A program made the position numbers and the translations under genes. From positions 1-53,172 of the forward strand of contig PFVO01000018.1 in NCBI GenBank assembly GCA_002790655.1: a DNA stretch of 53,172 nt, given 5' to 3'. Shown one piece after another: positions 15,876 to 20,108 of this stretch (positions are counted from its first letter, which is position 1; each line of letters begins with the position of its first letter). A model generated the notes under the pieces. That model did not search any database. It was not told the DNA's origin and was given only the letters and a program-made list of their open reading frames with translations. The DNA comes from Candidatus Moranbacteria bacterium CG_4_9_14_3_um_filter_44_28 (GTDB taxonomy: Bacteria; Patescibacteriota; Minisyncoccia; Moranbacterales; UBA11712).

Positions 15876-17108
15876 TCAAATTCTAAAAAATTTTTCCATC
15901 CTCTCAAACGCCTCATTAATATCCTCCTCGCTACGCCCAAAACACATCCGAATGTGGTTTTCTCCGCTGGGGCCGAAGGCCGCGCCGGGAACAACAGCCA
16001 CCTTCGCCTTCTCTAACAATTCTAGGGCAAACTGCCAACTTCCGCCATTTTTTGCGACTCTTCGCAAAATTTCGTCTTTTATTCGAGGGAATACAAAATA
16101 AGCGCTGTCCGGTTTCTGATATTCAAACACATTCTCTAATTTATCCAGTCTTTTACAAATCAAATTCCTTCTTTTTTGGAAATAATCTTTGAATTTTTTG
16201 ACGTCTTCCTGCGCCATCTCAAGCGCCGCTTGAGCCGCGAACTGGGAAACCACCGGCGCACAAGTAACCAGTGTGTCGTGGACGGCAAGAATTTTTTTCG
16301 CCAAATCTTGATGTGTCGCCAAAAATGCGATCCGCCAGCCGGTCATAGCGTAGGCTTTCGAGAAAGAGAAGATGTAAATCAGCCGATCGCGAATGCCGCG
16401 AAGTTCGGCCAGTGAATATAATCTTTCATTGGAATCGTTCACCCTGTTAAATTGCGCCGAAGGCGCACCTGCTTCGCAGGATTTAACAGGGTAAATAAAG
16501 TCCTTGTAAACCTCGTCGCTCAAAATATATAAATTATGCTTGATGGCCAGTTGCGCCAGCGCGTGTAACTGGTTGCGGGTGAAAATCGTTCCCGTTGGAT
16601 TATTTGGATTGCAAAAAAGAAAAGCTTTCGTCCGCGGTGTGATGAGTTTTTCAAATTTTTCAATATCCAGCGCCCAATGTTTTTCTTCAGCAAGCGGAAC
16701 AAAAACGGGAACTCCGCGAGCCACTTTGATCGCCGGCTGATATGATGTGTAAGTCGGGTCGGGAATCAAAACTTCGTCTCCCGGCTCGAGAATTGCCAGA
16801 AGTGTCGCCGTGATAGCCTCAATGGAACCGGCCGTCGCGATAATTTCCGTCTCAAAATCGTAGAATTTGTTTTCTTTTTCAAGGTATTGGGCAATTGTTT
16901 CCCGAAATTCCAAAGTCCCCGGCGCGAGCGAATATTTGGCCACTTTTCCCTTTTCGATCGCATCAATCGCCGCCCTTTTCACGGCTTCCGGTGTATCAAA
17001 AGACGGCACGCCTTGAGCAAGCGAAACAACTCCGGGAATGCGCGACGCCCGGAGCTCCATTTCTTTTATGGGGGAAAGATTAATCTTGTTTTTGTCGGAA
17101 AATTGCAT
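15876..17108 (-). CDS. Class I/II PLP-dependent aminotransferase (aspartate/aromatic type)
   Basis: CNPNNPTG, PLP-lysine motif SFSKAYAMTGWRIAF, C-terminal GENHIRMCF. Carries an in-frame palindromic insert at 16443-16492. Confidence 0.8.
   Translation of the reverse strand: MQFSDKNKINLSPIKEMELRASRIPGVVSLAQGVPSFDTPEAVKRAAIDAIEKGKVAKYSLAPGTLEFRETIAQYLEKENKFYDFETEIIATAGSIEAITATLLAILEPGDEVLIPDPTYTSYQPAIKVARGVPVFVPLAEEKHWALDIEKFEKLITPRTKAFLFCNPNNPTGTIFTRNQLHALAQLAIKHNLYILSDEVYKDFIYPVKSCEAGAPSAQFNRVNDSNERLYSLAELRGIRDRLIYIFSFSKAYAMTGWRIAFLATHQDLAKKILAVHDTLVTCAPVVSQFAAQAALEMAQEDVKKFKDYFQKRRNLICKRLDKLENVFEYQKPDSAYFVFPRIKDEILRRVAKNGGSWQFALELLEKAKVAVVPGAAFGPSGENHIRMCFGRSEEDINEAFERMEKFFRI
16443..16492. 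repeat. Nested-hairpin element, family P6, inside the aminotransferase CDS
   Basis: ccctgttaaat ... atttaacaggg is a perfect 11-bp inverted repeat. It encloses gcgcc-gaa-ggcgc and cctgc-ttc-gcagg hairpins. The 5' half matches 21/27 with the intergenic copy at 38905-38944. Confidence 0.8.
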
Positions 17109-17404
17109 AAATATTCCAATTCCGCCGCAAATATGCTACTGTTTGCTCACAGGAAAATAATATAATAAATCCCTGCGATACACAAATTTCCGCGGATTAT
17201 CCAAAATCAATCCGCCCAAAAACGAGTTATATGAAATACATGTTTTCCTTTACATTTAAAAATGTTGCTTTTTAATAAGGAAACGAATTTAATTTTTTCT
17301 TTTAATTTTAGAGAGGAGTATAAGGCGTTTTTACCTGCTCCTATCGTCGCAGTCAAAAACGATTTTTAATTTTTATTAGAATTTGATAAACTAAATTAAA
17401 AAAT

Positions 17405-18007
17405 ATGGCAAATAATGAAATCCAAAAAATTGAAAAAGAGTTAAATTTTGTGAAGAATAATTATTTAAAACTTCTAACAATATTGCCTAGTTTTAATATT
17501 ACCGATAAAAAAATTTTGCCATATGGTTTAAGAGCCCATACTAGATCTGTAAGTTAGTTAGTTGAACAAGTTATTACTCAACAAACAAAATATAATGCTA
17601 AAAAACTCGGTTTAGATAAAGTTGATTTTGATTTTCCAGATACATCGCTTCACGATTGCGAAATAGTAGTTAATAACAAGAGTTACTTTATAAATGTAAA
17701 AATTCATAATATAGAAGGTAAAGAAAATAAAAACGATATATCCGCGGTAGAAAAACTTTATTTTCAATACAGCGTCAATAAAGACTATAATTTAATTTAT
17801 GCTTGTTTTGGTATTAAGTTTGAAAATATAAAAATAACTTTTGATAAGAATTATTTAGAAATTTTTTCGCCTCAATTTTTACCTATTTATGTTAATCCGA
17901 GAAACGACAAAATACAGGCTACTTATCGACATGATAAAATACACCGAACAAGAGAAGAATTTTCAAAAATGCTCAAGGAAAAATCAAAAAGCATTATTTT
18001 GAAATAA
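17405..18007 (+). pseudogene. Putative type II restriction endonuclease interrupted by one in-frame TAG
   Basis: A single frame runs from ATG 17405 to TAA 18005-18007, broken only by TAG at 17555-17557 (..RAHTRSVS*LVEQVITQQ..). A possible PD..NxK arrangement is FPD-(17 aa)-NVK. It ends 9 nt before the methyltransferase ATG. The function call is by position only. Confidence 0.5.
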
Positions 18008-18016
18008 AATAGCACT

Positions 18017-18865
18017 ATGAATAAAATTTTTAATGAAGATGTTTTATTGGGGATAGATAAAATAAAAAATAATTCTGTTGATTTAATATTGACAGATCCG
18101 CCTTATTGTCTTGGGAAAGATTATGGTAATGATTCAGACAGGAAATCATCAGATGAATATTTAGAATGGACATACAAATGGATCGATGCGGTATTGCCAA
18201 AGCTAAAAAATTCGGGAAGTTTGTATATTTTTTTAAGCTGGCAATATTCACCGGAAATTTTTGTTTATCTCAAAAAGAAATTAAAAATGATTAATGAGAT
18301 TATTTGGGACCGACGGGTTCCTAGCATGGGTGGTTCAACAAGAAAATTTTCTTCTGTTCATGATAATATAGGTTTCTTTGCAAAAAATGATTATTATTAT
18401 TTTGATATAGACAGCGTGAGAATTCTTTACGATGAAGAAACTAAGAAAGCAAGGACGAGATCAATCTTTGTTGGTAAAAAATGGCTGGAAATTGGATATA
18501 ACCCTAAAGATTTATGGAGTAATTCGAGAATTCACGCCCAAGATCCAGAGAGAGAAAATCACCCCACTCAAAAACCGTTAGAAATAATTGAACGAATGGT
18601 AAAGGCCAGTTGTCCAAAAAATGGTGTAGTTTTTGATCCATTTATGGGGACAGGGACAACCGCCATTGCCTGTTTGGCAAACGATAGACAATATGTAGGA
18701 TTCGAAATAAACAAAGATTATTACAAAATTATAATAAATAGGATTAAAAAATATAATAGTCGCCCCACTTTATTCCAACAACAAAATAATTTGGCTCGGG
18801 GTATTCACCCCCAGCCCCTCTGCCCCTCGCAAAAACAGAAAAAAATAAATTCTTATTCCTATTAA
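18017..18865 (+). CDS. Beta-class amino DNA methyltransferase (N6-adenine or N4-cytosine)
   Basis: Motif IV LILTDPPYCLG lies N-terminal to motif I VFDPFMGTGTTAIAC, and NHPTQKPLEIIERMV is present. Confidence 0.85.
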   Translation: MNKIFNEDVLLGIDKIKNNSVDLILTDPPYCLGKDYGNDSDRKSSDEYLEWTYKWIDAVLPKLKNSGSLYIFLSWQYSPEIFVYLKKKLKMINEIIWDRRVPSMGGSTRKFSSVHDNIGFFAKNDYYYFDIDSVRILYDEETKKARTRSIFVGKKWLEIGYNPKDLWSNSRIHAQDPERENHPTQKPLEIIERMVKASCPKNGVVFDPFMGTGTTAIACLANDRQYVGFEINKDYYKIIINRIKKYNSRPTLFQQQNNLARGIHPQPLCPSQKQKKINSYSY

Positions 18866-18915
18866 AAAAGCAATTTATTACATAAATTAAAGGAAAACAT
18901 GTACATCATATAACA

Positions 18916-19050
18916 GCGTGTATGCGGCTACGGCTTCCCTAACGGTAAGCCTTCGCCCATATTGCTCCTTTCGGTCGCAACATCGCATACACGCGGACGT
19001 TATGCGAAGTCGCGGAGCGACGAGCAGACTGGCGGGAATCGCCGGGCATT
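18916..19050. other. GC-rich nested-hairpin element or unassigned structured RNA between the R-M cassette and corA
   Basis: A perfect 11-bp stem (18916-18926 with 18984-18994) encloses two hairpins. Two more hairpins follow at 19009-19021 and 19029-19045. It is flanked by ATATAACA at 18908-18915 and 19051-19058. 34 of the first 60 nt are G+C, against AT-rich flanks. Confidence 0.5.
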
Positions 19051-19074
19051 ATATAACACTTGTGAGATGATGAA

Positions 19075-20007
19075 ATGATAACCATATTCAAAAGCATACA
19101 AAACAATTTGAAAGAAATCAGCAAGTTCGAGAATGATTGCTGGATAAATGTCTCAAACCCTACTAACGAAGAATTGGAGAAATTATCTCAGAAATTAAAA
19201 ATTCCTTTGGATTTCTTAACAGATCCATTGGATGTTGATGAAAGAGCAAGAATTGATGCAGAGAATGGGTGTATCCTGATTGTATTAAGAGTATCGCGAT
19301 TTGATGAGAAAGAGGTTGATATTCCATTTACTACTCTGCCGGTGGGCATAATAATTACCAAAGAGATAGCTATTACTATCTGTTCTAAAGACGTTCGTGT
19401 CATTTTGGATTTCATTAATGGCAAAGTAAGAAACTTTTCCACTGAAAACAAAAGCCGTTTCCTTTTACAGATATCTCACAGAACAGCTTTGTTATATCTG
19501 AAGGATTTAAGAGAGATTAATAATAGAACAACTATGGTCGAGAAAGAATTACATAAGGCAATGAAGAATGAGGAGCTGATAAAACTATTAAACATTGAGA
19601 AAAGTTTGGTTTTTTTTACAACATCTTTGAGGTCTAATGAACTCATGATGGAAAGACTTCAAAAAACGGAAATTATAAAAATGAATCCTGATGACGAAGA
19701 TTTAATGGAAGACGTAATTACAGAGAGTAAACAAGCTATTGAAATGAGTAATGTTTACAGCAATATCCTCAGTGGAATGATGGATGCATTCGCATCCGTT
19801 ATCTCGAATAACTTAAATGTCGTTGTGAAATTCCTGGCGGCAGTTACAATAATTTTGATGATTCCAACATTGATAGCAAGCCTATATGGTATGAATGTAA
19901 AGCTACCATTTCAAGATTCCTCCCATGCTTTTCTTATAACTCTTAGTATTTCATTTACTCTGTCGGCAATAGGTGTATTGATATTTATAAAAAGAAAATG
20001 GTTCTGA
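19075..20007 (+). CDS. corA: CorA-family magnesium/cobalt transporter
   Basis: YGMN signature (ASLYGMNVKLPF), two C-terminal TM helices, 310 aa. Confidence 0.85.
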   Translation: MITIFKSIQNNLKEISKFENDCWINVSNPTNEELEKLSQKLKIPLDFLTDPLDVDERARIDAENGCILIVLRVSRFDEKEVDIPFTTLPVGIIITKEIAITICSKDVRVILDFINGKVRNFSTENKSRFLLQISHRTALLYLKDLREINNRTTMVEKELHKAMKNEELIKLLNIEKSLVFFTTSLRSNELMMERLQKTEIIKMNPDDEDLMEDVITESKQAIEMSNVYSNILSGMMDAFASVISNNLNVVVKFLAAVTIILMIPTLIASLYGMNVKLPFQDSSHAFLITLSISFTLSAIGVLIFIKRKWF

Positions 20008-20037
20008 ATATGTTTTCCGTCTAACCGCCCAACAAAC

Positions 20038-20070
20038 AAATCCCGGAGTTAAAAACTCCGGGATTTTTAA
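20038..20070. terminator. Bidirectional intrinsic terminator between corA and serS
   Basis: atcccggagtt-aaaa-aactccgggat is a perfect 11-bp stem, with T-runs after it on both strands. Confidence 0.8.
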
Positions 20071-20108
20071 TTTTAATTTTAACATTCTAAATCGCCAGCT
20101 CTAATTCT

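Follow-up and report, generated by a model that had tools for sequence, protein, structure and literature searches.

Inverted arms around a restriction-modification gene pair

The DNA analyzed here, a stretch of 53,172 nucleotides (nt) from Candidatus Moranbacteria bacterium CG_4_9_14_3_um_filter_44_28 (contig PFVO01000018.1, positions 1 to 53,172; in the following, the window), carries between the genes of a class I/II aminotransferase and of the CorA transporter (corA) a restriction-modification (R-M) gene pair which is bracketed by inverted repeats and which is probably a single gene cassette of an integron-like recombination system. The original prediction, made from the letters of the window, had described termini matching at 25 of 27 positions, and this was confirmed: 25/27 identity was found between positions 17226-17252 of the forward strand (GTTATATGAAATACATGTTTTCCTTTA) and 18888-18914 of the reverse strand (GTTATATGATGTACATGTTTTCCTTTA), and dinucleotide-preserving shuffles of the window gave no match of this quality. 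The weaker similarity that had been noted for about 20 nt farther inward exists as well, but its extent is larger, as a gapped alignment reaches 17303 and 18834, respectively, and covers 78 to 81 nt with 80% identity (BLAST E value of 5.2e-12). The G+C content is 24 to 33% between the termini and approximately 45% in the flanks, and the element is present in a single copy in its 794-kb, 48-contig genome. As had also been claimed, the window shows no target-site duplication, with a left flank of AAAAACGA↓GTTATATG and a right flank of CATATAAC↓AGCGTG or CATATAAC↓AGCGTGTA (arrows mark junctions here and below), and no recombinase gene was found anywhere in the window. The features of the locus are listed in Table 1.

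TABLE 1 Features at the locus, with positions counted from the first nucleotide of the window
Feature	Position	Strand	Basis
Class I/II aminotransferase gene, left neighbor	15876-17108	-	
attI-like region, ending ...CCGCCCAAAAACGA before G17226	17109-17225	+	Homology to the stretch from the recombinase gene to the first crossover in the relative G008
Left arm, GAAATAC type	17226-17320	+	Sequence comparison
Putative cassette proper, 1773 bp (left arm, cargo, right arm, B)	17227-18999	+	Junctions and circular-cassette rule
Small hairpin and T-rich run	17326-17377	+	CGTTTTT (17326-17332) pairs with AAAAACG (17355-17361); comparison of 18 cassettes
Putative type II restriction endonuclease gene, 200-codon ORF	17405-18007	+	Translation; comparison with the relative G018
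DNA methyltransferase gene, N6-adenine/N4-cytosine type, DPPY motif	18017-18865	+	PF01555, E value of 3.4e-56
Right arm, GATGTAC type	18796-18914	-	Sequence comparison
B site, attC-like three-way-junction element, 108 nt	18904-19011	+	Covariance; model R1
Remnant of a further structured site (...TCGCCGGGC↓ATTATATAAC)	19000-19058	+	Homology to a site of G008
corA, right neighbor	19075-20007	+	

Both open reading frames (ORFs) of the R-M pair lie inside the repeats; the pair is, however, not enclosed as exactly as had been described, since the right arm provides the last approximately 20 codons and the stop codon of the methyltransferase gene. The relative G018 possesses the same pair without repeats, a situation the original prediction had named, together with a repeat occurring nowhere else, as counting against a mobile unit: there, the two genes (81% nucleotide and 84 to 85% amino acid identity) adjoin a tRNA gene and have neither arms nor a B site, and the homology of the two methyltransferases stops at residue 267, where the right arm of the window begins. 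The endonuclease ORF contains an in-frame TAG at 17555-17557, where the G018 copy (85% amino acid identity) has TGG, encoding Trp; the endonuclease gene is thus predicted to be inactivated by a TGG-to-TAG nonsense change, with the methyltransferase predicted to be intact. No Pfam family was found for the endonuclease ORF, and its match to NF045956 (UpaP162 family) was weak (E value of 9e-5, 22 bits, below the cutoff of 100). The methyltransferase scored 166.6 bits with NF008572 (adenine-specific methyltransferase), below the cutoff of 292. As a candidate type II R-M system, the pair comprises a clear DPPY methyltransferase and a TAG-interrupted partner ORF with only a subthreshold family match.

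A family of cassettes with variable cargo

A degenerate form of the 27-nt core, GTTATATGANNTACATGTTTTCCTTTA, occurred exactly in 39 loci of a collection of species-representative genomes, so that the repeat, far from being confined to the window, is widespread; no match was obtained in viral contigs or plasmids. The titles of the records with such loci name Patescibacteria, Peregrinibacteria/Peribacteria, Saccharibacteria, Uhrbacteria, and Parcubacteria and, in some cases, Gammaproteobacteria, Pseudomonadales, Flavobacteriales, and Bacteroidota, these labels being those of the deposited metagenome-assembled genomes (MAGs), which may err. A cross-phylum case that looks sound is a 237-kb Bacteroidota contig with a G+C content of 50 to 56% that falls to 44% at the arm. 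Near-identical arms in MAGs labeled as different phyla point to a recent and wide horizontal spread.

With mismatches allowed, 18 complete units were found, in which a GAAATAC-type and a GATGTAC-type arm face each other at a distance of 0.68 to 5.85 kb. Each genome harbors one or two arm-bearing units, and copies are also present in several genomes of the order to which the window belongs. The units form a cassette family with variable cargo, their 45 ORFs falling mostly into singleton families. Pfam assignments comprise an EcoRI-type methylase with a GmrSD_N/HNH nuclease in four cassettes, Fic/DOC proteins in three, AAA_15/AAA_21 ATPases, Mrr_cat, GmrSD with Schlafen/AlbA_2, an Eco57I/MmeI-type fused enzyme, a superfamily 1 helicase, a PD-(D/E)XK nuclease, and DUF2130; cargo unrelated to defense consists of S-adenosylmethionine-dependent methyltransferases, a metallophosphoesterase, a metallo-β-lactamase-fold protein, and TSP3-repeat proteins. 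The cargo of this arm-bearing subfamily, whose cassettes measure up to 5.9 kb, consists mainly of R-M and other defense or toxin genes. In all 18 cassettes, the ORFs of at least 120 amino acids are read from the GAAATAC-type toward the GATGTAC-type arm, with a single exception among these ORFs.

The recurrence of the termini around unrelated cargo in many genomes upholds the claim that the R-M pair resides in a discrete, horizontally acquired unit, and the reported lack of a transposase holds for the family, as none of the 18 units carries a transposase or recombinase gene among its cargo. No cognate autonomous element with a transposase was detected in the 39 loci with exact termini, in six extended loci, or in the genome of the window; metagenome contigs were not scanned.

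A folded site at the cassette boundary

The boundaries given in the original prediction proved too narrow, since conserved sequence extends past both ends, into the attI-like region on the left and into a structured site, designated B, on the right. Outward conservation from the GATGTAC-type arm was seen in nearly all loci and corresponds to 18904-19011 of the window: approximately 34 right arms with at least 150 nt of outer flank run into a B-type flank (ACATCATATAAC followed by B), and a different flank was found in at least L032 and L037. B starts with the last arm bases (...CATATAAC) and terminates with ...(G/A)AAC-GTT; in the window the end reads GGACG↓TT, with a predicted crossover at G18999↓T19000. 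The sequence beyond the terminal G↓TT varies by locus and often opens another cassette (GTTRNNNGAAAT...).

The predicted fold of B consists of a closing stem of 10 to 13 pairs (P1, 18916-18926 with 18984-18994) and two inner hairpins. It is conserved and covarying: in an alignment of 24 sequences, 20 of the 25 predicted pairs show compensatory double changes, and the unpaired motifs CCCATAT and AACATC are invariant. The window copy scored 92.5 bits with the covariance model R1 (E value of 1.1e-14) and is the sole copy in this genome. Compared with an attC site, an imperfect palindrome with R″ (RYYYAAC) and R′ (GTTRRRY) boxes and a crossover at G↓TT, B has the boxes ATATAAC ... GTTATAT/GTTRNNN, a covarying fold, and junctions that vary right after GTT, but this fold is a three-way junction. 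With one B site in the window and the whole genome, the locus does not form a CALIN, which comprises at least two attC sites without an integrase. The remnant that follows B is 84% identical to G008:C9:22022-22078 on the opposite strand, a site preceding the next gene of that genome; its match to R1 was weak (E value of 1.3).

The 1248-bp contig L010 shows the tandem arrangement directly: a site is followed by left arm, ORF, right arm, and a second site, then by a short ORF-less stretch, a third site, and the left arm of the next cassette with its ORF. An earlier interpretation of region "A" of this contig as an inverted copy of B was rejected, as the model search places a direct B-type site there. 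The ORF-less stretch between two B-type sites (L010:948-1034) contains a perfect extended -10 box (TGGTATAAT) facing the next cassette and is possibly a promoter cassette; a similar string, TGTGGTATAAT, lies upstream of the armless R-M pair in G018 (L053:1437-1447). In the B sites of L009 and L035, the halves of the closing stem do not match (CCGTGTATGAGG versus CGCATAGCCAGG) and the 3′ half is that of L042, as expected of a hybrid site arising by recombination between two different sites.

Several assignments of the structured elements were discarded. A Mg2+ riboswitch, considered for the element upstream of corA, was rejected for want of an Rfam match and because more than 30 loci have this element behind unrelated cargo. 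Group II introns, ends of IS200/IS605 insertion sequences (IS), TnpB/IscB guide RNAs, and repetitive extragenic palindromes or their mosaic elements (REP/BIME) were suggested by the hairpins but were dropped because matching protein genes do not occur and because of the position of the elements at the borders of cassettes, with AAC...GTT boxes. Rfam returned no family for the arms or B, either in the region or in six related loci, the only matches being chance-level ones to BTE and BSnc120.

A tyrosine recombinase linked to the B sites

In related loci, the cassettes are associated with the gene of a tyrosine recombinase. By tblastn, a gene of approximately 272 codons was found adjoining the left arm and divergent from the cargo in L015, L016, L024, L032, L034, L044, and G008; the homologues in the L loci are 45 to 59% identical, that of L024 being frameshifted and that of L032 partial. 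An adjacent, divergent recombinase gene, as required of an integron, is thus present in related loci and absent from the window itself. More than 587 relatives occur in the genome collection, most of them in the Candidate Phyla Radiation (CPR) and some in DPANN archaea and Spirochaetota.

The best model for the recombinase was NF040815 (XerA type; 220.8 bits, cutoff of 220). TIGR02249 (integron integrase; cutoff of 265) matched it in two stretches with a subthreshold 213.5 bits. Alignment with VchIntIA/IntI4 (2A3V) placed residues 7-181 and 198-273 on residues 6-183 and 243-318 of the chain, and since 16 residues (182-197) thus stand opposite 59 residues of IntI4 (184-242), the IntI-specific insertion of approximately 43 residues is absent. 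With the Pyrococcus XerA-like protein 4A8E, the recombinase aligns end to end.

Model R1 was run over 80 recombinase loci, for which 235 kb upstream and 362 kb downstream of the gene were searched with an E-value limit of 0.01. It detected 82 sites, 79 of which lie upstream of the recombinase gene on the opposite strand and three downstream, so that the link between recombinase and B sites is specific for strand and side. Up to eight sites were found per locus, and 32 of the 43 loci with at least 1.5 kb of upstream sequence had a match; on the upstream side of the recombinase gene, 33 of the 80 contigs end within 700 nt, which is what repeats would produce. The layout predicted from these sites is that of an integron.

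Junctions and history of the locus

G008 still carries the recombinase gene at the place that corresponds to the locus in the window. There, the aminotransferase gene is followed by a 274-codon recombinase gene, the start of which adjoins a stretch homologous to 17109-17228 of the window, and then by no cargo. The two sequences are identical over CGCCCAAAAACGAGTT and approximately 65 to 70% identical farther upstream. They share the left junction, ...CGCCCAAAAACGAG↓TT, and diverge right after GTT; because divergence follows immediately on the shared stretch, the crossover was placed at G17226↓T17227. In three relatives of the same family (L056, L060, and L061), serS directly adjoins the aminotransferase gene with gaps of 13 to 36 nt, which provides the empty sites that the original prediction had suggested looking for. 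Because of this adjacency, the window is taken to have an insertion of approximately 3 kb, which spans 17109 to about 20108 and takes in corA.

The circular-cassette rule, by which each cassette start should match its own end, was examined with the 12 positions at the ends: a cassette's own start agreed with the complement of its own end at 9.9/12 positions, versus 7.2/12 for the start of the neighboring cassette. When folded with DNA parameters, the hypothetical circular junction gave a single long stem of arm against arm that carries B at its tip (-62.3 kcal/mol).

Downstream of corA, no B-type site was found. The corA gene (19075-20108 region) may belong to the platform or represent a second cassette of greater age. 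Its stop codon is followed by a string resembling a decayed arm (TGAATATGTTTTCCGTCTAACCGCCC, 20005-20030) and by a hairpin that has a T-run, and the site of G008 equivalent to the remnant before corA precedes a phosphotransferase-like gene. In two unrelated genomes, the 3′ end of a tRNA gene is located at a distance of 200 to 250 nt upstream from the platform (L048:4100-4320 and L050:3700-3800), which suggests that some platforms adjoin tRNA genes. Within the neighboring aminotransferase gene, in frame, lies a nested-hairpin repeat of approximately 58 nt (16438-16496), which recurs with 76 to 100% identity across many contigs of many related genomes and for which Rfam yielded a chance-level BTE match alone.

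Structure of the arms

In the left arm, the R′-like GTTATAT and the 27-nt core (17226-17252) are followed by a local hairpin (CATTTAAAAATG, 17253-17264), a conserved AT-rich tract, and the motif GAGAGGAG; the right arm contains the R″-like ATATAAC (18908-18914), the core (18888-18914), its own local hairpin and AT-rich tract, and the G-rich motif GAGGGGCAGAGGGGCTGGGGGTGAAT. The GTTATAT at the beginning of the left arm and the ATATAAC closing the right arm are exact complements of each other. The two arms of one cassette are more alike than arms of different cassettes (score of 13.5 versus 8.5, an observed value attained by 0 of 10,000 permutations), as exemplified by the derived states AATAAGGAA.../AATAGGAAT..., which are common to both arms of the window and absent from the family consensus, and by GTTGTATGAC, present in both arms of L050.

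The hairpin with T-run that follows the left arm recurs in most related cassettes, with covarying stems. Its conserved loop reads (T)CCGCT(T/A)CGCT(C/A)C. Besides the window (17326-17377), it was located at L010:948-990, L059:3620-3667, and, after left arms, in L044 and L046-L049, where a T-run follows and two tandem copies are sometimes present; a second context is given by GTTGT...ACAAC minimodules directly 3′ of B-site crossovers. The G-rich right-arm motif (GGGCAGAGGGGAATTAAAGGGGTGAAT) occurs twice in tandem at L011:4490-4600, between cargo and arm core. Scanning for sigma-70-type promoters and terminators gave nothing above chance in the arms.

Discussion

The segment 17227-18999 is, with good probability, one gene cassette belonging to a site-specific recombination system of integron-like type, a system that is common in CPR/Patescibacteria. 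The cassette would end in a folded attC-like site, B, and an XerA/IntI-like tyrosine recombinase, encoded at the array head in other genomes, would cut and rejoin at G↓TT. Insertion would consist in recombination of the B site of a circular cassette with the attI-like site beside the recombinase gene and would split a long palindrome, the left arm (TTATATGAAAT...) going to the 5′ end and the right arm with B to the 3′ end. The inverted repeats that first drew attention would then be the two halves of this palindrome, which in the circle might form a stem of approximately 80 bp with B at its tip. The cassette in the window appears to be stranded, for at the position where G008 has its recombinase gene none is present. 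In this interpretation, the recombinase would act on B and attI-like sites, with folded single-stranded DNA as its substrate, and the conserved arms may contribute to the reaction.

Several observations weigh against this interpretation. The IntI-specific domain around patch III, which the recombinase lacks, is held to be necessary for attC recombination. B is a branched structure of 108 nt, unlike a typical attC site, and the mismatches in its stems (approximately 19 G·T versus 13 A·C) are indecisive as to the folding strand and to DNA or RNA. The 27-nt arms occur on only a minority of the cassettes in recombinase-linked arrays. In the genome of the window, which is 96.7% complete, the recombinase is represented by nothing closer than a distant Xer-like gene (132.6 bits), and B is present once. 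Finally, the conservation of the arms goes far beyond the needs of a mere stem, and each arm possesses its own local hairpin that is unable to pair with the other arm; for these two reasons, the arms probably have a further function.

In the best of the alternatives, the arms are expression signals only, such as promoter, leader, and terminator or a sense/antisense control of toxic cargo, that accompany the cassettes, and recombination proceeds by B alone. The GAGGGG-type motif at the end of the left arm, followed by hairpin and T-run before the first gene, would suit such signals, as would an arm sequence far more conserved than the B stems; moreover, recombination does not need arms, since most cassettes in recombinase-linked arrays have none. 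On the other hand, the promoter and terminator scan performed no better than chance, and there is no obvious reason why promoter and terminator modules should be inverted copies that covary within a cassette. We consider expression as the sole role of the arms unlikely; a role in expression is compatible with the integron-like reading and does not exclude it.

Inversion of the segment, in which a tyrosine invertase would flip the R-M genes relative to an outside promoter via the inverted 27-nt cores, would suit the inverted repeats around defense genes, and the recombinase does match the models of tyrosine-type DNA invertases NF007370 and NF007371, if only weakly (58 to 65 bits, far below cutoff). 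The constant orientation of the cargo relative to the arm types in 18/18 cassettes is not what flipping would leave behind; likewise, the outer partner (attI-like region or direct B on the left, B on the right) tracks the arm type, no hybrid arm occurs in the 18 cassettes, and this genome has no recombinase at the locus, all of which makes phase variation very improbable.

Least probable of all is a nonautonomous transposon with terminal inverted repeats (TIRs), i.e., a mobile insertion cassette (MIC) or a large miniature inverted-repeat transposable element (MITE) with cargo, mobilized in trans by a transposase recognizing the 27-nt termini: the long conserved inverted termini, variable cargo, low copy number, and lack of an internal recombinase gene would fit, but the window shows no target-site duplication, no transposase was found beside the termini in 39 plus six loci, the orientation relative to the neighboring tyrosine recombinase is fixed, approximately 34 right arms continue into B-type flanks, and to the left of the left arm stands a direct B-type site or an attI-like region, for which reason the arms are part of a larger site and not free ends. 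The transposon-like vehicle envisaged in the original prediction is therefore unsupported; GTTATAT and ATATAAC, with which the repeats begin, act like R′ and R″ boxes in an attC-like folded site.

The integron-like system proposed here resembles known systems to different degrees. As in integrons, a tyrosine recombinase gene is divergent from a one-directional array, the newest cassette stands beside this gene, an imperfect palindrome that folds and has ...AAC / GTT... boxes and a G↓TT junction closes the cassettes, each cassette start matches its own end, and the cargo is rich in defense genes. For the cassettes of chromosomal integrons, a wealth of defense genes is reported in a preprint (10.1101/2024.07.02.601686), and the integrons of archaea encode IntI proteins with the IntI-specific domain (10.1101/2022.02.06.479319). 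Unlike in integrons, the recombinase is XerA-like, of approximately 272 residues, without the IntI-specific insertion and below the TIGR02249 cutoff; the site is a 108-nt three-way junction; this subfamily has an extra inverted arm of approximately 80 to 110 nt on each side of the cargo; cassettes contain multiple genes and reach 5.9 kb; and the hosts belong to the CPR. Because its recombinase lacks the IntI-specific domain, the system lies outside the IntegronFinder definition of an integron, and its working is presumably integron-like.

Xer-dependent dif modules (pdif modules of Acinetobacter plasmids) are likewise recombinase-less gene modules between short inverted Xer-type sites, with defense and toxin genes as common cargo. 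The cassette start TTATATGAAAT agrees at 9 of 11 positions with TTATGTTAAAT, the XerD arm of E. coli dif, a likeness that serves as a lead. In contrast to pdif modules, a dedicated recombinase gene heads the arrays, direct structured sites of 100 nt separate the cassettes, the 27-nt core has no evident 11-6-11 dyad, and the location is chromosomal rather than plasmid-borne. With mobile insertion cassettes (the IS231-derived MIC231 of Bacillus cereus) and cargo MITEs, the units have in common that TIRs bracket passengers without an internal transposase; they differ by the missing target-site duplication, by the missing cognate IS with the same ends, and by ends that lie within a larger recombination site. 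A literature search found no description of these arms or of an integron-like system of the CPR.

A more far-reaching and rather doubtful proposal is that the arm-bearing cassettes constitute a distinct and self-contained "long-palindrome" class within an undescribed Xer-type integron-like system of the CPR. Arms of approximately 80 to 110 nt, nearly identical among phyla, might let large multigene defense cassettes fold, as a cruciform or a single-strand hairpin, for a recombinase without the IntI domain; bacteria with minimal genomes might in this way share a pool of exchangeable antiphage modules, at times also with Bacteroidota and other phyla; and the system might represent an intermediate between Xer/dif recombination and integrons.

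The window adds an arm-bearing, defense-rich, multigene subfamily, a comparison of the same R-M genes with and without arms, and an attI junction in common with G008, which has retained the recombinase. For annotation, the cassette would explain a foreign R-M pair with a G+C content of 25 to 30%, a dead endonuclease, and a "GC-rich hairpin element" upstream of corA. If the interpretation is true, an integron-like platform exists without the domain thought essential for attC recombination, which bears on the origin of integrons, and the cassette-borne defense of chromosomal integrons extends to a different phylum and a different recombinase. Ultrasmall bacteria with few known mobile elements would then trade R-M and antiphage genes as cassettes, by means of a short Xer-like recombinase and folded DNA sites.

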